Shown here: in pieces, positions 4,862-15,528 of the stretch
Position numbering within the stretch: the stretch's first letter is position 1
Layout: every line of letters begins with the position of its first letter
Sequence record: MT611523.1
Strand: one strand, 5' to 3'
DNA: 64,000 nucleotides
Origin: Escherichia phage DK-13
Program-made: the position numbers and the translations under genes
The notes under the pieces: model-generated
What the model was told of the DNA's origin: nothing
Databases searched by the model: none
Seen by the model: the letters and a program-made list of their open reading frames with translations, nothing else

Positions 4862-7800
4862 ATGGCCGATATTTTAAAACCAGCATTCAGAGCAACATCC
4901 GGTCTCGATGCTGCTGGTGAGAAAGTCATTAATGTCGCAAAAGCTGATTACTCAGTTTTATCAGACGGCGTTAACGTAGGTTTCTTTATAGAAGAAAACA
5001 CAATTCAACAATATGATGCGACGCGCGGATACAAAAAGAACTTTGCGGTTATTAATGATAACCGTATTTGGGTTGCTCAACGTGATATTCCGGCACCAGC
5101 TGGAGCATTTACCCCTCAGTATTGGTTAGCAACTCGTACTGACCCTAAATGGGAAACTGTTGCATCTCCAACTCGTCAGCTTAGCTCCGGGGAATTTATC
5201 GCAGTCGACTCAGCTGCAAGCTTTACCACATTTACATTGCCTCCGAACCCGACTGATGGTGATACCATCGTTATTAAAGATATCGGCGGTAATACCGGTT
5301 ATAATGAAATTAAAGTTCAATCGAGCAATGTGCCTGGTCAAGGTAACCAAAAGATTGTTCGCTTTGGTAATCAGTATTCAGAAGTTTTAATTACCAAACC
5401 ATTCTCTTATAACATGCTTATCTTTTCAAACCGCTTATGGCAATTTTGGGAAGCAGGTAACGAAGAACGTGGTATCAGAGTAGAACCGTCGACCGGACGT
5501 TTCCATGCACAAGCTGGCGACTTTATTATGCGTCGTTATACAACTGGTGCACCGATTACTTTCATTCTTCCTAAGTATGCAAACCAGGGTGATATTGTCA
5601 AATCTGTTGATATCGATGGTATGGGACCAACGTTCCACCTGATGGTTGAAACCTTTGACACTAGTTCCAGTCTTGATAAAGCTGGTCAGCATCAAATGGA
5701 ATTCCGCACCACAGGTGATGGTTTCTTCGTTTATGATGCTGCCGAAAAACTCTGGCATGTTTGGGACGGTGATTTTAAAACTCGTCTTCGCGTTATTCGC
5801 GACAGCGTTAAACTTTTACCAAACGAAAGTGTCATTGTATTTGGCGAAGATAACTCAACTCCGGCAACGATTAATATCGATTTGCCAACTAATGTTTTGC
5901 AAGGCGATATTGTTAAGATTGCGCTGAACTATCTCCGTAAATCGCAGACTGTTAATATAAGAGCTGCTGTTGGCGATAAGATTGCAACTGACATTAAATT
6001 GCTGCAATTCCCTAAACGTTCCGAGTATCCACCAGATACAACTTGGGTGATGGTTGATTCATTGACCTTTAATGGCAACATCAGTTATACTCCGGTTATT
6101 GAATTATCATATGCAGAAGATGCAGTGTCTGGAACAAGTTATTGGGTTGTCGCTCAGAACGTCCCGACTGTCGAACGAGTTGACTCATTAAATGATTCCA
6201 CGCGTACACGTCTTGGTGTTATTGCTCTGGCAAACCAGACTCAGGCAAACGTTGACCATGAAAATAACCCAGAAAAAGAACTCGCAATTACCCCTCAGAC
6301 TTTAGCCAACCGTGTTGCTAAAGAGAACCAACGAGGCATTGCCAGAATCGCAACGACTGCCCAAGTAAATCAGAACAGTGATTTTGCATTTGTTGATGAT
6401 GTAATTATTTCTCCGAAAAAACTCAATGAACGTACGGCAACAGAAACGAGACGCGGGCTCGCAGAACTCGCCACACAGCAAGAAACCAATGCGGGTGTAG
6501 ATGATACCACAATTATAACTCCAAAGAAACTGCAAGCTCGCCAGGGCTCAGAATCGCTATCCGGTATTGTAACTTACGTTTCAACAACCGGTGCAACTCC
6601 TGCTGCTTCGCGTGAATTAAATGGTACAAACGTTTATAATAAAAATACGGTTAATCTGGTTGTTTCTCCGAAAGCTCTTGACCAGTACAAAGCTACTTAC
6701 ACCCAACAAGGTGCGGTTATTCTTGCGGTTGAAAGTGAAGTAATTGCTGGTACTTCTCAATCTGGCTGGGCAAACGCAGTCGTTACTCCAGAAATGTTGC
6801 AGCGCAAAACTGCTCTTGATTCCCGTATCGGTTTAATCGAGATTGCAACTCAAGTAGAAACAGATGCAGGAACCGATTATACCAGAGCTGTGACTCCTAA
6901 AACGTTAAATGACCGTAAAGCATCAGAAACGTTAACCGGCATAGCCGAGATTGCTACGCAATCAGAATTTGATACTGGAACTGATGATACTCGTATCTCA
7001 ACTCCATTAAAAATTAAAACTAGATTTAATAATACTGCTCGCACTTCTGTTAATGCATTAAGTGGTTTAGTAGAAACAGGGACGCTCTGGGACCATTATA
7101 GCCTGAATATTCTTGAAGCAAATGAGACTCAACGCGGTACGGCAAGATTAGCAACTCAGGGTGAAGTCAATACCGGCACTGACGATAAAACAATCGTTAC
7201 TCCGCTTAAATTGATGTCGAAAAAAGCCACTGAAAATGCCGAAGGTATTGTTCGCATCGCGACAAACGCAGAAGCAACAGCAGGCACATCAAAAGTCTTG
7301 GCCATCAGTCCGTCGGCGCTGAAATATATTGCACAAACGGAAACAACCTGGGAATCATCTGAAACACTGCGTGGATTTGTTCGTTTATCTTCTGGTACAG
7401 CTACTTCGGCCGCAACTACAACGACTGGTGCAGGATTTACATATGCAAATGGTGTGTATACTCCGGACCCAAGTAAACTGGTTAGCTATTCAAAATCTGG
7501 TTATGCAGTTTCACCTTACGAATTAAACCGCGTATTGCAAAACTTCTTACCGATAAATGCGATGGCTGTTAATGCTGAAAAACTGGATAACCTTGATTCG
7601 ACCCAGTTTATTCGTCGTGATATTGCTCAGACTGTTGAAGGTGTGTTAACTCTTACTAAACAGACAAATATATCTGCTCCGGTTGTATCGACGAGCACTG
7701 CAGTGTTTACTGATGTAACGGCTGGCACTTCGACGTTCGGAACTGTGAATGTTGTTAACGGAACTAACAAGTGGAAAATCACCGCTCCTTCCGCCGGAAC

Positions 7801-8818
7801 GACAATGACTATTGGCGATACGACTAACGTATTGACATTAAACACCGCCTCGGGTAATGCTGCTGTATTGAACAACCTTAGTGCCGGAAATGATGTTCAA
7901 GCCAAAAATAATTACGTTCTAAATGGTCGTACTATCGCAACCACAACGGGTGAAGCTTCTGGCGCAACTCTGGCTCTGGGTGATAACTCGCAGAATTTAG
8001 TGCTTAAAACTCTTGATGCTGGCAATATCATAGCAAATGGTGGCGGCGCATTTAAAGTCCTGACCGAGAAAAACGCTGTTGAGATTGTAGATAGAAACTT
8101 TGTTAACCAAGCCGGTGATACAATGTCTGGTGTGCTCCGTGTGAATGCTCCGGTCCGTGTATTCGGTACGAAACCAAGTCTTATCGCACAAGCTCCGACT
8201 GCAGATACTGTTGGCTTCTGGTCTGTCGATATCAATGATGAACCGACTTATAGCCAGTTCCCTGGTTATTGGACAATGAAGTTAAAACGTCAGGTAAACA
8301 TTGATACAGTTCAAACTAAACCTGCTGGGGTAACTGATGAAGTTTGGAATGCTTCTGGTTGGTTAACTGAAAATGGAACTTTCGCCTCGCCTGTTATTCG
8401 TTATCGTAATGACGATGGTACACTCGGTGATGAAGTATTAGGTAGCTCTGGCCAAAAACTGCGCGGAACCTGGTTTGACTATTCGGTTCGTGATAAGGAA
8501 GTTAAATACCCTGGTACGTTAACTCAGTTTGGTAATACATTGGATTCATGTTATCAGGATTGGGTGTGTTATCCAACTGGATTGAACGGTGGTACTATTC
8601 GTTATACTCGTACATGGCAGAAAAATAAATCTGCATGGACGACTTTTGCAATGGTTTACACCGCGGATAACCCTCCGTCTGCAGAGGATGTTGGTGCATT
8701 ACCGGCCGACAACACAACAATGGGGAACTTAACCATTCTCGATTGGTTGCGTATCGGTAACGTGCGCATCATCCCAGACCCGACCACTAAATCCGTTAAG
8801 TTTGAATGGGTTGAATAA
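4862..8818 (+). CDS. 34: long tail fibre proximal subunit gp34
   Basis: 1318 aa ORF with ATG and AAGGA SD; size and position (after rnh, before 35/36/37) match T4 gp34; repetitive fibre-like sequence (multiple ...E.LRG.A..AT... repeats). Confidence 0.9.
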   Translation: MADILKPAFRATSGLDAAGEKVINVAKADYSVLSDGVNVGFFIEENTIQQYDATRGYKKNFAVINDNRIWVAQRDIPAPAGAFTPQYWLATRTDPKWETVASPTRQLSSGEFIAVDSAASFTTFTLPPNPTDGDTIVIKDIGGNTGYNEIKVQSSNVPGQGNQKIVRFGNQYSEVLITKPFSYNMLIFSNRLWQFWEAGNEERGIRVEPSTGRFHAQAGDFIMRRYTTGAPITFILPKYANQGDIVKSVDIDGMGPTFHLMVETFDTSSSLDKAGQHQMEFRTTGDGFFVYDAAEKLWHVWDGDFKTRLRVIRDSVKLLPNESVIVFGEDNSTPATINIDLPTNVLQGDIVKIALNYLRKSQTVNIRAAVGDKIATDIKLLQFPKRSEYPPDTTWVMVDSLTFNGNISYTPVIELSYAEDAVSGTSYWVVAQNVPTVERVDSLNDSTRTRLGVIALANQTQANVDHENNPEKELAITPQTLANRVAKENQRGIARIATTAQVNQNSDFAFVDDVIISPKKLNERTATETRRGLAELATQQETNAGVDDTTIITPKKLQARQGSESLSGIVTYVSTTGATPAASRELNGTNVYNKNTVNLVVSPKALDQYKATYTQQGAVILAVESEVIAGTSQSGWANAVVTPEMLQRKTALDSRIGLIEIATQVETDAGTDYTRAVTPKTLNDRKASETLTGIAEIATQSEFDTGTDDTRISTPLKIKTRFNNTARTSVNALSGLVETGTLWDHYSLNILEANETQRGTARLATQGEVNTGTDDKTIVTPLKLMSKKATENAEGIVRIATNAEATAGTSKVLAISPSALKYIAQTETTWESSETLRGFVRLSSGTATSAATTTTGAGFTYANGVYTPDPSKLVSYSKSGYAVSPYELNRVLQNFLPINAMAVNAEKLDNLDSTQFIRRDIAQTVEGVLTLTKQTNISAPVVSTSTAVFTDVTAGTSTFGTVNVVNGTNKWKITAPSAGTTMTIGDTTNVLTLNTASGNAAVLNNLSAGNDVQAKNNYVLNGRTIATTTGEASGATLALGDNSQNLVLKTLDAGNIIANGGGAFKVLTEKNAVEIVDRNFVNQAGDTMSGVLRVNAPVRVFGTKPSLIAQAPTADTVGFWSVDINDEPTYSQFPGYWTMKLKRQVNIDTVQTKPAGVTDEVWNASGWLTENGTFASPVIRYRNDDGTLGDEVLGSSGQKLRGTWFDYSVRDKEVKYPGTLTQFGNTLDSCYQDWVCYPTGLNGGTIRYTRTWQKNKSAWTTFAMVYTADNPPSAEDVGALPADNTTMGNLTILDWLRIGNVRIIPDPTTKSVKFEWVE

Positions 8819-8826
8819 GAGGTAAT

Positions 8827-9957
8827 ATGGAAAAATTTATGGCAGAGTTTGGACAAGGATACGTCCAAACGCCAGTTATATCAGAAAATAATGCCGTTAA
8901 ATTTAAAATGAGTATAGCAGGGAGCTGTACTCTTTCCACGGTGAAATCGTATATCAAATTTCAGGATGAACAAATCGGACCAACTACTTTTGGCAATGGT
9001 TTGACTCTATTAGAAATTGATACAACTACGAATAAAATTGTTAACACGAAAAACTATTCATTGACCAGCACACATGATGTAATCAGTCAGGCATTAATCA
9101 CCTTTGTGGAATCTGTTCCAGCTGGAAGATTGATTGCTTTTATTTCTTCTGGGAAACTAAATGCCTCGCAAACATTAATTGACTGGCTTCGTAAATGTGG
9201 CTCAAGAGCATTCCCCGAGAAATGGTTGATTGATAAAGTTGATACATCGTACTCGGCTTTTTACATAACCGGCCGGAACGTAATTGTTTCGGAGCATGTT
9301 AAGTATAATGACGGAATGTTAGTTGAGGATGTTTCAACTCCGCTTGAAGTCATTTATGATACCTTTAGTGATATAGGAGCAACAGGCTATCCTGTGCGCA
9401 TAACGGAAGACGAGAGCACGTATTCATCAACAGGTGATGGAACATCAACCGCGATTAGAAGGTTCCCCACAGAGGACCTGGTGACTCCTATGAGCACCTA
9501 TAACCTTTTACCTTTGGATGTGCTTTACTTGAAGTTTCAGATGTCATTTGACGCTGCACTGAAAGCCGCCGGGACTGTAAGGACTTCGGTTCGATTCTTT
9601 AAAAGCCCCAGCACTTCTCCAATATCAAATACAAACATCGATATTGCAGCGAACGTTCCAGCTGGTGCATGGGCAAGTTTCGAAAGATATGTCGAGATTC
9701 CAGCGGAAGCCGATGGCTTTACGGTAGTAACATCAAGGACTGTAGCTGTGGGAACTGGGTCAATACGTAATATTGTTATTGGTGAGATAACCAGAGGTGA
9801 CTCGGCATTCAAACCAGCTGAATTTGGTGTCAACGGCATAAGGATGTCATATGCAAACGATACAACAAATACAGGCAATACAATTGTAACATTACCAGAT
9901 GCGCAAGCTCCGAGAGCCGGCAAGATATATGCGGCCGAACTACGAGAAAAACAATAG
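8827..9957 (+). CDS. 35: long tail fibre hinge connector gp35
   Basis: 376 aa ORF immediately after gp34; size and position match T4 gp35. Confidence 0.8.
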   Translation: MEKFMAEFGQGYVQTPVISENNAVKFKMSIAGSCTLSTVKSYIKFQDEQIGPTTFGNGLTLLEIDTTTNKIVNTKNYSLTSTHDVISQALITFVESVPAGRLIAFISSGKLNASQTLIDWLRKCGSRAFPEKWLIDKVDTSYSAFYITGRNVIVSEHVKYNDGMLVEDVSTPLEVIYDTFSDIGATGYPVRITEDESTYSSTGDGTSTAIRRFPTEDLVTPMSTYNLLPLDVLYLKFQMSFDAALKAAGTVRTSVRFFKSPSTSPISNTNIDIAANVPAGAWASFERYVEIPAEADGFTVVTSRTVAVGTGSIRNIVIGEITRGDSAFKPAEFGVNGIRMSYANDTTNTGNTIVTLPDAQAPRAGKIYAAELREKQ

Positions 9958-10024: not shown

Positions 10025-10672
10025 ATGGCAGATTTAAAACTAGGCTCAACAGCCGGAGGTTCGGTCCTCTGGCACCAAGGTAATTTCCCATTAACACCAG
10101 TCAGTAATGACTTATATTTCAAAACTTATAAAATTTATTCCGAATATAACAAGCCACAAGCAGTCGATAACGATTTCGTTTCTAAAGCTCTTGGCGGTAA
10201 TTATAAAGCAAATGTATATTTCGAACAAGGCTTGACATTTAACGATTCAAATGGTTATGGAATTAAGTTGGGAGCGAGAACGGGCGGTGCACCATTTACA
10301 GCATCTTTCCGTATTAAAGGACCGTTTGGATTTGAGACTGAAACGGGAACACCATTCGTTATTTTTGACCCTGACACTACAACAGGAGCAAAACGTCTTA
10401 CTGTTATGGGTGATACGTTAGCTCGACAAATTTATGATGAAACAGGTCGTGTATTTTCTCCAGGAAATACTCCGTCAAAAGCTCAAGTTGGTCTTGGTAA
10501 TGTAACTAACCAGCGACAGGTGGAACTAAATAATAGTACATTGCAAACAATGACAGGTAACTTGTCAGCACCTAATTTCTTCTCTAGGAACCCAGCATCA
10601 GACCCGGCCCACGTGCCCCGTTTTGACCAAATCGTTCTTAAAGACTCCGTACAAGATTTTGGATATTATTAA
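10025..10672 (+). CDS. 36: long tail fibre distal connector gp36
   Basis: 215 aa; MADLKLGSTAGGSVLWHQGNFPL... and C-terminal ...APNFFSRNPAS.P.HVPRFDQIV.KDSVQDFGYY resemble T4 gp36. Confidence 0.9.
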   Translation: MADLKLGSTAGGSVLWHQGNFPLTPVSNDLYFKTYKIYSEYNKPQAVDNDFVSKALGGNYKANVYFEQGLTFNDSNGYGIKLGARTGGAPFTASFRIKGPFGFETETGTPFVIFDPDTTTGAKRLTVMGDTLARQIYDETGRVFSPGNTPSKAQVGLGNVTNQRQVELNNSTLQTMTGNLSAPNFFSRNPASDPAHVPRFDQIVLKDSVQDFGYY

Positions 10673-10680
10673 GAGGCATT

Positions 10681-13600
10681 ATGGCTACTTTAAAACAAAT
10701 ACAATTTAAAAGAAGTAAGGTTGCCGGCGTTCGTCCGGCGCCAACAGTTCTTGCTGAAGGTGAACTGGCTATCAACCTGAAAGACCGCTTACTTTTTACT
10801 AAAGATGACACCGGCGCCATCATCGACCTTGGCTTTGCTAAAGGTGGTAATATTGACGGTAACGTTATTCATAAAGGAAATTACAATCAAACCGGCGCCT
10901 ATACTATAGCCGGAGATATTTCACAAACGTCTGGACATTTTACTACTACTGGTAATATAACAGCAAATGGTGATATTACTGCAAAAGCCCGTTTAATGAC
11001 AGATAACGGTGAAGTTCTTGTACGAGGTACAGGAACCACTCATGTTCGATTCCAGGATTTGGCTGATGCTCGCGAAAGAGGTATAATTTATTCTCAAAAC
11101 CGTACTGGGGATACCAAGCAAATCTTGAACGTTCGTGTCCAGGATTACACTAATTCAACATCTAATATTTTTGCATTCAACGGCGACGGTTTATTTTATG
11201 CTCCATCTATTTCCGGTGGAACATCGGTAAAATCTCCGGTAATTTATACTAATACCGTTGATACCGGTAATAAATCAGCTCTTGATTATGATATATCTTC
11301 ATTAGCAAATAATAATCCTGCAAGTTCAAGCGCAACAGCTATTAACTATCTTAGAATAAGTAGACACGCTGTCGATGGAATTAGGTATCGTGAACTTAAT
11401 AATGTAAATGGTATTTCATGGCATTCTATTTCTACAGCCGGAACAGCTAAGTATCTTTGGTCATTTAATGCAGATGGAGATGTCAAAACATCAAATTCTC
11501 TTTCCGTTGGCCTACCTGGGGATAGCTCAGGATACTCAACATTAGGTCCGTCTGCTATCGCACTTGGCGACAATAACACAGGTTTGAAATGGAGACAAGA
11601 CGGCCAGTTCCATATAGTTAATAATGGAGCTTATACTTTACTTACAACTCCGACTGAAGTTACAAGCCTTAAACAGTTAGTTGCGGGTTATTCAACCAAC
11701 GGTTCTGATTTAATTCTCCCTACAACCCAAAACTATCCATTAGTTATTGTTAATACTACTAATGATAAAAACGGCTTCGGTGACGGTCAAACTCTTTTAG
11801 GATATCACCAAAGCGGCAAATATCACCATTATTTTCGTGGCAAAGGTGTAACAAACGTTAACACCGATGGTGGGTTGTTGGTTACTCCTGGTAACGTTGA
11901 AGTCCGTGGTGGTTCGGTTAATATTGATGGTCTCAGTAATGCTTCGACAGTGCTTTTTAAAGGAAATACTACAGGTTCTAGTTCAGTTGATAATATAGAG
12001 CTCAAAGTTTGGGGTGACACTTTTAATACGGTAGATGGTTCTCGTAAAAACGTAATGGAAACATCTGATGCTACCGGCTGGATGCATTATATTCAACGAA
12101 CTACAGCAGGTAAAGTCGAATCCTATTTAAATGGTACCATGAATGTAATTGAAGGATTGACTGTCAATCAAGATACATCCTTAAAACGCAATCTGTATGT
12201 TTCTAATGAAATTAAAGTTCGCGCTGCTAGTGGTCTTCGTATTTGGAACGATAAGTACGGTGTTATTTTTCGAAATTCGGAAGACCAGCTGCATATTATC
12301 CCGACCAATGTTAATGCCGGCGAAAGTGGCGGATTAGGCCCATTACGCCCATTAAGTATTACGTTAGACACTGGTCAAGTTAAAATCCCTAATTTAGCGG
12401 CTGACCAAGTTTCTTTTATTGCTAACAGCGTATTAGAATTCCCTGCTGGTAATGGTGCATCTTATGCCAACCAGAATACGACTAAAGCTCCGTTGTATCA
12501 AACACTTGGTGCAGCAACCCAAGCATTCTATCCAATTACCAAGCAGAAAAATACAGTTTCTAATGTAACTATTACTCAAGGTATGGACCGCGCTACGAGC
12601 GAATACCGAATTGTTGCTCAAGGTGATTTGCTTGGTAATGGTGATGTTACAGGATTAAAATACTGGCGCTTTACCAAAGAAGGTAACTTCATAGCTCAGA
12701 ACCGCTTATATGCCGGTACAGCTTATATGAATACCGATGGTAATATTGCAGGTTCTATTTGGAAAAAGTATAGCGGTGCTACTAACCTTGATTCTGCGGT
12801 GAATACTCGTGTAGGTAAAGGCGGCGATACAATGACAGGCCGTTTAACTCTTAATGCAAACTCGGATGCTATTGTTATTAACAGTGCTGCAACCGAATCT
12901 GGTTATATGAAAGGACAAAAAGCTGGTATTGATAACTGGTATGTAGGTAACGGCGGTGCCGATAATGCTGTATCAATTTATAGTTTTCAAACTAATTCAG
13001 GTGTTAATATTAATGCAGGTGGTGATATTGCTTTAAACCCACAAGGTTCAGCCACTTTTAATTTTAATAGGGACAGACTTTTTATTAATGGCTCTGTCTG
13101 GGCGGCTCACCAAGCTGGCGATTGGGGAACCCAATGGAAGCAAGAAGCTCCGGTATTTGTAGATTTTGGTAATGTTGGTAATGATAGTTATTATCCGATT
13201 ATCAAAGGAAAATCTGGTATTACTAATGAAGGATATGTATCGGGTGTTGATTTCGGTATGCGTCGTATTACTAATACATGGGCCCAAGGTATTATTCGTG
13301 TAGGTAACCAGGAAAACGGTTCCGACCCACAAGCTATATATGAATTCCACCACAATGGAGTTATGTATGTTCCTAACATGGTTAAAACTGGAGCAAGATT
13401 ATCAGCTGGTGGTGGTGACCCTGTATGGACCGGCCCGTGTCTTGTTATTGGTGATAATGATACAGGATTAGTTCATGGTGGTGACGGCCGAATCAATATG
13501 GTTGCCAATGGTATGCATATTGCATCTTGGTCTAGCGCTTATCATATCCATGAAGGTCTTTGGGATACCAATGGTGCTTTGTGGACTGAGCAAGGAAGAG

Positions 13601-14010
13601 CTATTATGTCTTATGGTCATCTTGTTCAGGCAAACGACAGCTATTCTACATATGTTCGAGATGTTTATGTCCGTTCTGATATTCGTGTTAAAAAAGACCT
13701 TGTTAAATTTGAAAATGCTTCTCAGAAGCTTTCTAAAATCAACGGTTACACTTATATGCAGAAACGTGGCCTGGATGAAGAAGGTAATCAGAAATGGGAA
13801 CCTAACGCTGGTTTAATTGCTCAAGAAGTTCAATCTATTTTACCTGAATTGGTTGAAGGCGACCCTGATGGTGAAGCTTTACTTCGTTTAAACTATAACG
13901 GTGTAATTGGTTTAAATACAGCTGCAATCAATGAGCATACTGCAGAAATTGCAGAACTTAAGTCAGAGATTGAAGAACTTAAAGCATTAATTAAATCATT
14001 GTTAAAATAA
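10681..14010 (+). CDS. 37: long tail fibre distal subunit gp37 with C-terminal intramolecular-chaperone-like domain
   Basis: 1109 aa; N-terminus [48 protein letters not shown] resembles T4 gp37; last ~110 aa (SDIRVKK...[15 protein letters not shown]...coiled-coil) resemble S74-type auto-cleaving chaperone domains. Confidence 0.9.
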
Positions 14011-14013
14011 TAA

Positions 14014-14031
14014 GAGGGGCTTCGGCCCCTT
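14014..14031 (+). other. C(UUCG)G-type hairpin between genes 37 and 38
   Basis: GAGGGGC-UUCG-GCCCCUU directly after gp37 stop and before the gp38 SD (GGAGG); no long U-run. Confidence 0.45.
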
Positions 14032-14041
14032 GGAGGTTTAT

Positions 14042-14839
14042 ATGGCAGTAGTAGGACCATGGGTTGGAGGGTCTGCAGTAGCTAATACAGGACAAAACTG
14101 GATGGGTGGCGCGGCCCAACGATTAAGAATGGGTGCTCCGTTTTGGATGAGCAATATGATAGGTCGGTCTGTTGAAGTAATTCATACTTTAGGTGGAGAC
14201 CATAACTTTAATGGGCAATGGTTTAGAGACCGTTGTTTTGAAGCCGGCGCTGCGCCTATTGTGTTTAATCTTACAGATACATTAGTATCTTATACCCCTG
14301 ATGTTCCATTGTTCTTTATGTATGCGGATACTCCAAACGAATACGTTGTTTTGAATATTCATGGTGGGGTTCATATGTGGGGACGTGGTGGTCACGGCGG
14401 TTGGACCCACTCAGGTGGAGACGGTAACGGCCAACGGGGTGGTGATTGTATAGTCAACCATATAGGTCATAGACTACGTATTTGGAACTATGGGGTTATC
14501 TGCGGCGGTGGCGGAGGCGGAGGCGGTATTGCTTATCGACCTCACTCAGGTGCTAACTGGCAAGATATCGGCGGTGGCGGCGGACGTCCATTTGGTCCAG
14601 GTGGTGGTGGCGGGTATTCCGGCGGCGGCGCTTCTTATGAAAGCCCTGGCGGTGGATACGATTATGGTAACGCCCACTCAGGTCGTGGCGGGGATGCCGG
14701 CGGTGCAGGCCAGAACGCATGGTCTGATGGTGGTAAAGTTCTAAAAGTCGGAGCCGGTGGCGGTTCTGGAGCTGCTGTTGCCGGTTATGCTCCTGCATGG
14801 GGCGCGACAGGTACGATTTACGGTCCTTGGCTTAGTTAA
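14042..14839 (+). CDS. 38: T2-type receptor-recognising adhesin gp38 with glycine-rich motifs
   Basis: ORF-track start 14030 is TTG; ATG at 14042 has GGAGG SD; MAVVGPW..GSAV...[28 protein letters not shown]...PLFFMY.DTPNEYV.LNIHGG followed by poly-Gly tracts resembles T2-like gp38 as recalled. Confidence 0.8.
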
Positions 14840-14844
14840 GAACT

Positions 14845-14852
14845 TATAAATA
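14845..14852 (+). promoter_or_regulatory. T4-type late promoter motif upstream of holin gene t
   Basis: exact TATAAATA about 22 nt upstream of ATG 14875. Confidence 0.6.
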
Positions 14853-14874
14853 TCTTTAAAGTTAAGGAGAAAGT

Positions 14875-15528
14875 ATGGAACCAAAAGTAGGAATATCAAT
14901 ACCCGACCTACTTTTTGGACTTCTTGATAGAATTTTTAAAGATAATGCGACCGGGAAAGTTGTTTTTTCCCGGGTACTAGTTATTGTTCTATTATTTTTA
15001 ATGGCGGTAATCTGGTATAAAGGTGATGCAATTTTAGATGCGTACAGGGATGCTTCATATGCCTCGTACACAGAAATGATAAGGCAAGACCAGGATAACA
15101 GATTTAAAATTGCAGCTATCGAGCAAATCCAGATAGTCCACTCGTCAAGTGGAGCAGACTTTACAGCAATATATTCTTTTAGACCAACTAACCTTAACTA
15201 CTTTGTGGATATGGTGGGATATGAGGGGATATTGCCTGATACTGTCGACGAAAAAAATTTGGGTGGGTTTCCAATAGATAAAACTTCAGCAGAATATTTG
15301 GCGGGGGTTAATGGTAATTATTTTGAATCCAGTACGGAATCTGTATTCTTACCAACAAAGAAAAAAAGCAGCTTCTCATATATGTTCAGCTGCCCATTCT
15401 TTAATTTGGAAAACGTTTATGCAGGTACAGTCTCGCTGTACTGGTATAAGCAAAAACCTATCCTTGGTTTTGATAGGCTTTCTGCTATGTGTGGACAAGC
15501 AGGTCGTACGCTTGGGCGTACACGTTAG
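14875..15528 (+). CDS. t: holin T
   Basis: 217 aa; ...DLLFGLLDRIFKDNATGKV...YSFRP.NLNYFVD...YMFSCPFFNLENVYAGT...YWY resembles T4 holin T; N-terminal TM segment; position after gene 38. Confidence 0.93.
   Translation: MEPKVGISIPDLLFGLLDRIFKDNATGKVVFSRVLVIVLLFLMAVIWYKGDAILDAYRDASYASYTEMIRQDQDNRFKIAAIEQIQIVHSSSGADFTAIYSFRPTNLNYFVDMVGYEGILPDTVDEKNLGGFPIDKTSAEYLAGVNGNYFESSTESVFLPTKKKSSFSYMFSCPFFNLENVYAGTVSLYWYKQKPILGFDRLSAMCGQAGRTLGRTR

Follow-up and report, generated by a model that had tools for sequence, protein, structure and literature searches.

The long-tail-fibre locus

The stretch of DNA analysed here (the window) comprises 64,000 nucleotides of Escherichia phage DK-13 (MT611523.1) and carries its fibre genes in the canonical T-even order 34-35-36-37-38-t. 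Genes 34 (4862–8818), 35 (8827–9957) and 36 (10025–10672) precede gene 37 (10681–14010, plus strand), which encodes the distal long-tail-fibre subunit as a precursor of 1109 aa (119.3 kDa); gene 38 (14042–14839, plus strand) and the holin gene t (14875–15528) follow. Gene 37 was identified from its ORF, from homology to T4 gp37, from Pfam and from a match to PHROG 1699, 'long tail fiber protein distal subunit' (E = 2.9e-274). Pfam recognised the holin, the gp38 adhesin and the gp34/gp37 trimerisation domains in the locus; in gp37 itself Gp34_trimer was matched and gp37_trimer fell slightly under the cut-off. NCBIfam returned no family for gp37 or gp38.

Over positions 13300–14900 the closest deposited relatives are the Tevenvirinae Escherichia phages UPEC07 (genus Gaprivervirus) and TH55, with 92.4% DNA identity, and the remainder of the window is 93–95% identical to other coliphage genomes. 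Neither tRNA genes nor Rfam families at gathering score were found across the 64-kb window (1–64000). The product of gene 35 matched the Pfam family ILEI (PF15711, 'Interleukin-like EMT inducer') with E = 1.5e-6, barely over the gathering score. T4 gp35 also matches ILEI (E = 1.1e-8), and the match therefore characterises the gp35 family in general, not the present phage in particular.

The C-terminal Peptidase_S74 module of gp37

The last ~110 residues of gp37, quoted in the initial annotation in a form identical to the ORF translation, had been described there as chaperone-like. Comparison with S74 and chaperone domains gave matches in both Pfam and PDB. The module spans Ser999 to Lys1109 (111 aa, 12.3 kDa, pI 4.9; 13675–14007, plus strand) and is delimited by Pfam, PDB, alignment, PHROG and heptad evidence; the stop codon of gene 37 directly ends it. 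Since the Ser999 codon (TCT) begins at nucleotide 13675 and the stop codon ends at nucleotide 14010, the interval singled out at the start, 13675–14010, bounds the domain exactly. Residues 999–1058 matched Pfam PF13884 (Peptidase_S74, "Chaperone of endosialidase") over profile positions 1–57 of 58, with E = 4.8e-12 and 46.4 bits, well above the curated gathering cut-off of 22 bits. The final 190 residues of gp37 align end to end with PDB 6F45 chain A, the distal gp37 fragment of Salmonella phage S16 (E = 6.5e-43). Judged by these sequence matches, the C-terminus of gp37 is a Peptidase_S74 intramolecular chaperone (IMC) domain.

When the single sequence was searched against PDB with phmmer, 6F45 and a weaker match to the autocleaving domain of human MYRF (7DC3) were the only hits. 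A 12-sequence alignment of the module was also built; it included sequences from T2, JS98, EcS1 and Klebsiella, Salmonella (T5-like), Tlsvirus, Vibrio, Synechococcus, Nonagvirus, Erwinia and Burkholderia phages, and covered Straboviridae, Demerecviridae, Drexlerviridae, Kyanoviridae and Queuovirinae as well as a Burkholderia phage. The profile made from it returned five PDB chains: 6F45 (S16 gp37, E = 1.7e-28), 7DC3 (MYRF autocleaving domain, E = 1e-10), 8JOV (a tail fibre, E = 4e-8), 3GUD (the GA-1 neck-appendage chaperone domain, E = 3e-5, matched from its residue 1, a Ser) and 8HQZ (an L-shaped tail fibre, E = 7e-3). The last three were reached only through the profile, not by single-sequence phmmer, and the K1F (3GW6) and T5 (4UW8) structures were reached by neither of these sequence searches of PDB. 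A single-sequence AlphaFold2 model of residues 966–1109 was of low confidence (mean pLDDT 57, pTM 0.39), with a helix at model residues 97–143 whose end had a pLDDT of 72–88; for likeness to the solved IMC folds, the profile matches to 3GUD, 7DC3 and 8HQZ serve in its stead.

Eight positions of the module are invariant in the 12 sequences: Ser1, Asp2, Lys6, Gly46, Ala49, Gln50, Pro57 and Glu58, corresponding to S999, D1000, K1004, G1044, A1047, Q1048, P1055 and E1056 of gp37. Ser999 and Lys1004 form a candidate catalytic dyad, in which the Ser opens the domain on its N-terminal side and the Lys follows five residues later (S999-D-I-R-V-K1004), and this segment aligns with SDRRIK of S16 and SDERHK of GA-1. 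The sequence GLIAQEV occupies residues 1044–1050. The Ser-Asp...Lys arrangement and the G-x-I-A-Q-E-V motif pointed out in the initial annotation are thus both present, and because S/D/K and G-x-x-A-Q are invariant in the alignment, they represent the conserved core of the family. The terminal coiled coil proposed there likewise agrees with the sequence: over the final ~35 residues, five successive Ile residues fall at heptad position 'a' and Leu at 'd', a pattern that fits a coiled coil.

The module is widespread. By tblastn it was found in at least 1444 phage records (E ≤ 1e-3), in 178 of which it is at least 90% identical, UPEC07 being 100% identical; the deposited gp37 of one Vibrio phage already carries the annotation "Peptidase_S74 domain-containing protein". 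It matched 32 PHROG families, and in the best 25 of these 32, which were checked, the match lay at or near the C-terminal end of the profile; 22 of these 25 are annotated as tail proteins.

The predicted cleavage site, the fibre tip and gp38

Ser999 aligns with residue 1 of the Pfam S74 profile, with the Ser that follows the S16 cleavage point and with residue 1 of 3GUD, which places the predicted autocleavage site at Arg998^Ser999 (13672–13677, plus strand; DVYVR^SDIRVKK). In S16 the last 113 residues of gp37 constitute the IMC, which cleaves itself off at DLNVS^SDRRIKK and so exposes the docking surface for gp38 (PMC7917993, citing Dunne et al. 2018), and sites closely similar to the present one have already been predicted in Yersinia T4-like phages. 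C-terminal cleavage of gp37 followed by capping with gp38 has likewise been described for T2 and T6 (PMC3157838, citing Drexler et al. 1986), in agreement with the processing and subsequent gp38 attachment that the initial annotation had mentioned for T2. By homology to S16, T2, K1F and T5 we infer that gp37 is cleaved, where it is cleaved and that gp38 docks on the resulting end; since P1 is occupied by Arg here but by Ser in S16, the exact scissile bond is predicted from the alignment. The predicted mature gp37 would comprise residues 1–998 (107 kDa) and end in ...DVYVR998.

Ahead of the site lies the distal beta-helical tip of mature gp37 (~residues 920–998; 13438–13674, plus strand), the predicted docking platform for gp38. 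In a search with a 211-aa gp37 fragment, query residues 22–100 aligned with residues 27–92 of 6F45_A, that is, with the triangular and interdigitated tip domains of S16, with one 12-residue insertion. The role of the S16 tip region ahead of the cleavage site has been described (PMC6851490, PMC7917993). The insertion relative to S16 gp37 lies at window positions 13555–13590 (gp37 residues ~959–970), and it could change the shape of the docking platform.

The downstream gene 38 encodes a tail-fibre adhesin of the T2/S16 type (265 aa), as had been noted at the outset. It matched Pfam GP38 (E = 1.3e-62) and Gp38_N (E = 3.4e-20) and, in PDB, 6F45_D (S16 gp38, E = 1.5e-51) and 9V85 (E = 2.8e-60), and it is 40% identical to T2 gp38 over the N-terminal 150 aa. 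An N-terminal attachment domain carries W7, W20 and W35, which the alignment to 6F45_D pairs with Trp residues of S16 gp38; the remainder is a polyglycine-rich receptor-binding domain. The S16 gp38 tryptophans plug into pockets of the gp37 tip (PMC6851490). The mechanical ORF call puts the start of gp38 at a TTG at 14030. We take the ATG at 14042 as the true start, because Gp38_N aligned over positions 1–40 of 40 from there and the spacing after GGAGG is right.

Comparison with T4 sets the present fibre apart. T4 gp37 (NC_000866), served by the chaperones gp38 and gp57A, aligns with the present gp37 over residues 1–691 only (34% identity), and the position of the locus and its gene order are shared, but beyond these homologous N-terminal ~690 residues the two proteins differ: Pfam finds no Peptidase_S74 match in T4 gp37 even at E ≤ 1, as the initial annotation had held, and T4 gp37 ends instead in a Collar domain and phage-fibre repeats. 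The needle domain of T4 gp37 is itself the adhesin, whereas T4 gp38 is an unrelated assembly chaperone (PMC3157838; PMC12892980). T4 gp38 is not of the adhesin type, and neither Pfam GP38 nor Gp38_N matched it.

T2 gp37 (AP018813), in contrast, ends in VYIR^SDIRLK followed by a 99-aa IMC, an adhesin-type gp38 comes next, and the gene order 34-35-36-37-38-t is the same. It differs in being longer (1341 aa) and in having only ~30–35% identity in the tip and IMC, and the identity between the gp38 proteins (40%) is confined to their N-terminal part. S16 has the same succession of beta-helical tip, S-D-x-x-x-K, G-L-I-A-Q-E-V, coiled coil and three-Trp gp38 adhesin (6F45; Dunne et al. 2018), with an IMC of 113 aa (PMC7917993) against 111 aa here; apart from the P1 residue and the tip insertion, the hypervariable loops of gp38 differ from those of S16, so receptor specificity probably differs as well.

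More distant systems share the module in other settings. The chaperone domains of the K1F/K1E endosialidase tailspikes and of the GA-1 neck appendage (3GW6, 3GUD; Schulz et al. 2010) belong to the same Pfam family and have the Ser/Lys(+5) dyad, but the client domain that they fold belongs to a tailspike or appendage and not to a long tail fibre, and the cleaved end receives no separate adhesin cap. The likeness to T5-type L-shaped fibres suggested earlier is borne out by the profile match to 8HQZ and by the C-termini of Tequintavirus fibres, relatives of the T5 pb1 IMC (4UW8), which match at 36–43% identity (~42% in the comparison bearing on that suggestion) with E down to 4e-19. In T5, however, receptor binding falls to the cleaved fibre tip itself, which acquires no adhesin of the gp38 type. 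A helical bundle with extended 'tentacles' is common to the solved IMCs of T5, K1F and GA-1 (PMC9608196).

According to the authors of the S16 structure, S16-like fibres occur in most T-even phages and T4 represents the less common type (PMC6851490). The initial reading of the gp37 tail holds on every point open to sequence analysis and needs correcting only in that this is no unusual departure: the arrangement is the published majority one among T-even phages, and T4 is the exception. With T2 gp37 processing reported in 1986 and S16 chaperone autocleavage in 2018, the chaperone tail of gp37 is an already published property of T2/S16-type fibres and no new biology.

Proposed self-cleavage and its alternatives

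The best overall explanation, which we consider very probable, is that gp37 carries a self-cleaving IMC and that its tip is subsequently capped by gp38. The C-terminal helices of the IMC would form a trimeric coiled coil that aligns three nascent gp37 chains in register and seeds the triple beta-helix ahead of the IMC, which would fold starting from its C-terminal end. After the trimer has folded, Ser999, activated by Lys1004, would attack the Arg998-Ser999 peptide bond; the acidic 12.3-kDa IMC would be released, leaving mature gp37 (1–998, 107 kDa) ending in ...DVYVR. The exposed blunt tip would then be capped by one gp38, whose N-terminal helices would insert W7, W20 and W35 into pockets.

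Instead, the S74-like module might have lost its catalytic activity and stay permanently attached to mature gp37, serving only as its C-terminal trimerisation domain or coiled coil; gp38 would then bind at another place or not bind. The Arg at P1, where S16 has Ser, could be read in this way, but T2 gp37, for which processing is reported (PMC3157838), shares the R^SD context. Moreover, Ser, Asp, Lys(+5), G-x-x-A-Q and P-E are all intact and invariant in the family, and gp38 retains its N-terminal attachment domain with the three Trp prongs, whose S16 equivalents require an exposed gp37 tip (PMC7917993). With the conserved residues all intact and the docking prongs of gp38 kept, we regard a dead, retained domain as improbable.

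About equally improbable is an extension of the self-cleavage reading, in which the released IMC trimer has a second role in the Gaprivervirus-like lineage, for example in gating or timing the loading of gp38, or in which the Arg-Ser bond and the 12-residue insertion define a distinct gp37-gp38 lock-and-key subtype with an interface not predictable from S16. There is no positive pointer to either.

Cleavage at Arg998^Ser999 could also occur in trans, by a host or phage protease and not by the domain itself. Drexler and colleagues are said to have established the processing of T2 gp37 without identifying the protease, which would leave room for such an enzyme. K1F endosialidase, the T5 fibre pb1 and MYRF, on the other side, cleave themselves via a Ser-Lys dyad when expressed alone, and the dyad is conserved in the present gp37. 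The homologous domain of S16 gp37 is reported to autocleave (PMC7917993). Cleavage in trans is thus disfavoured by the autocleavage reported for homologous domains, and we consider it very unlikely. The last alternative, that the resemblance is due to chance or composition and reflects a generic amphipathic helix or coiled coil, might draw on the spurious similarity that coiled-coil tails can produce and on the poor single-sequence structure model, but it was ruled out as next to impossible because the match found by Pfam lies in the first 60 residues of the module, its non-helical, non-coiled-coil part, and both the S16 gp37 match and the number of phage records carrying the module also speak against it.

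Under the preferred reading, self-cleavage followed by gp38 capping, the predicted mature C-terminus (DVYVR998) would be the attachment surface of gp38, and the boundary is useful for annotation and fibre engineering. For gp38 swaps or chimeric retargeting fibres the boundary is needed, and the IMC must stay in the expression construct.

Between the stop codon of gene 37 and the GGAGG ribosome-binding site of gene 38 lies a GC-rich 7-bp hairpin with a UUCG tetraloop (GAGGGGCUUCGGCCCCUU; 14014–14031, plus strand). A terminator that uncouples gene 37 from gene 38 was considered, but for want of a T-run on the plus strand the hairpin does not resemble an intrinsic terminator of the fibre operon; in a 66-nt context its fold z-score reaches only -1.6. 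The hairpin might be an RNA-stability or processing element.
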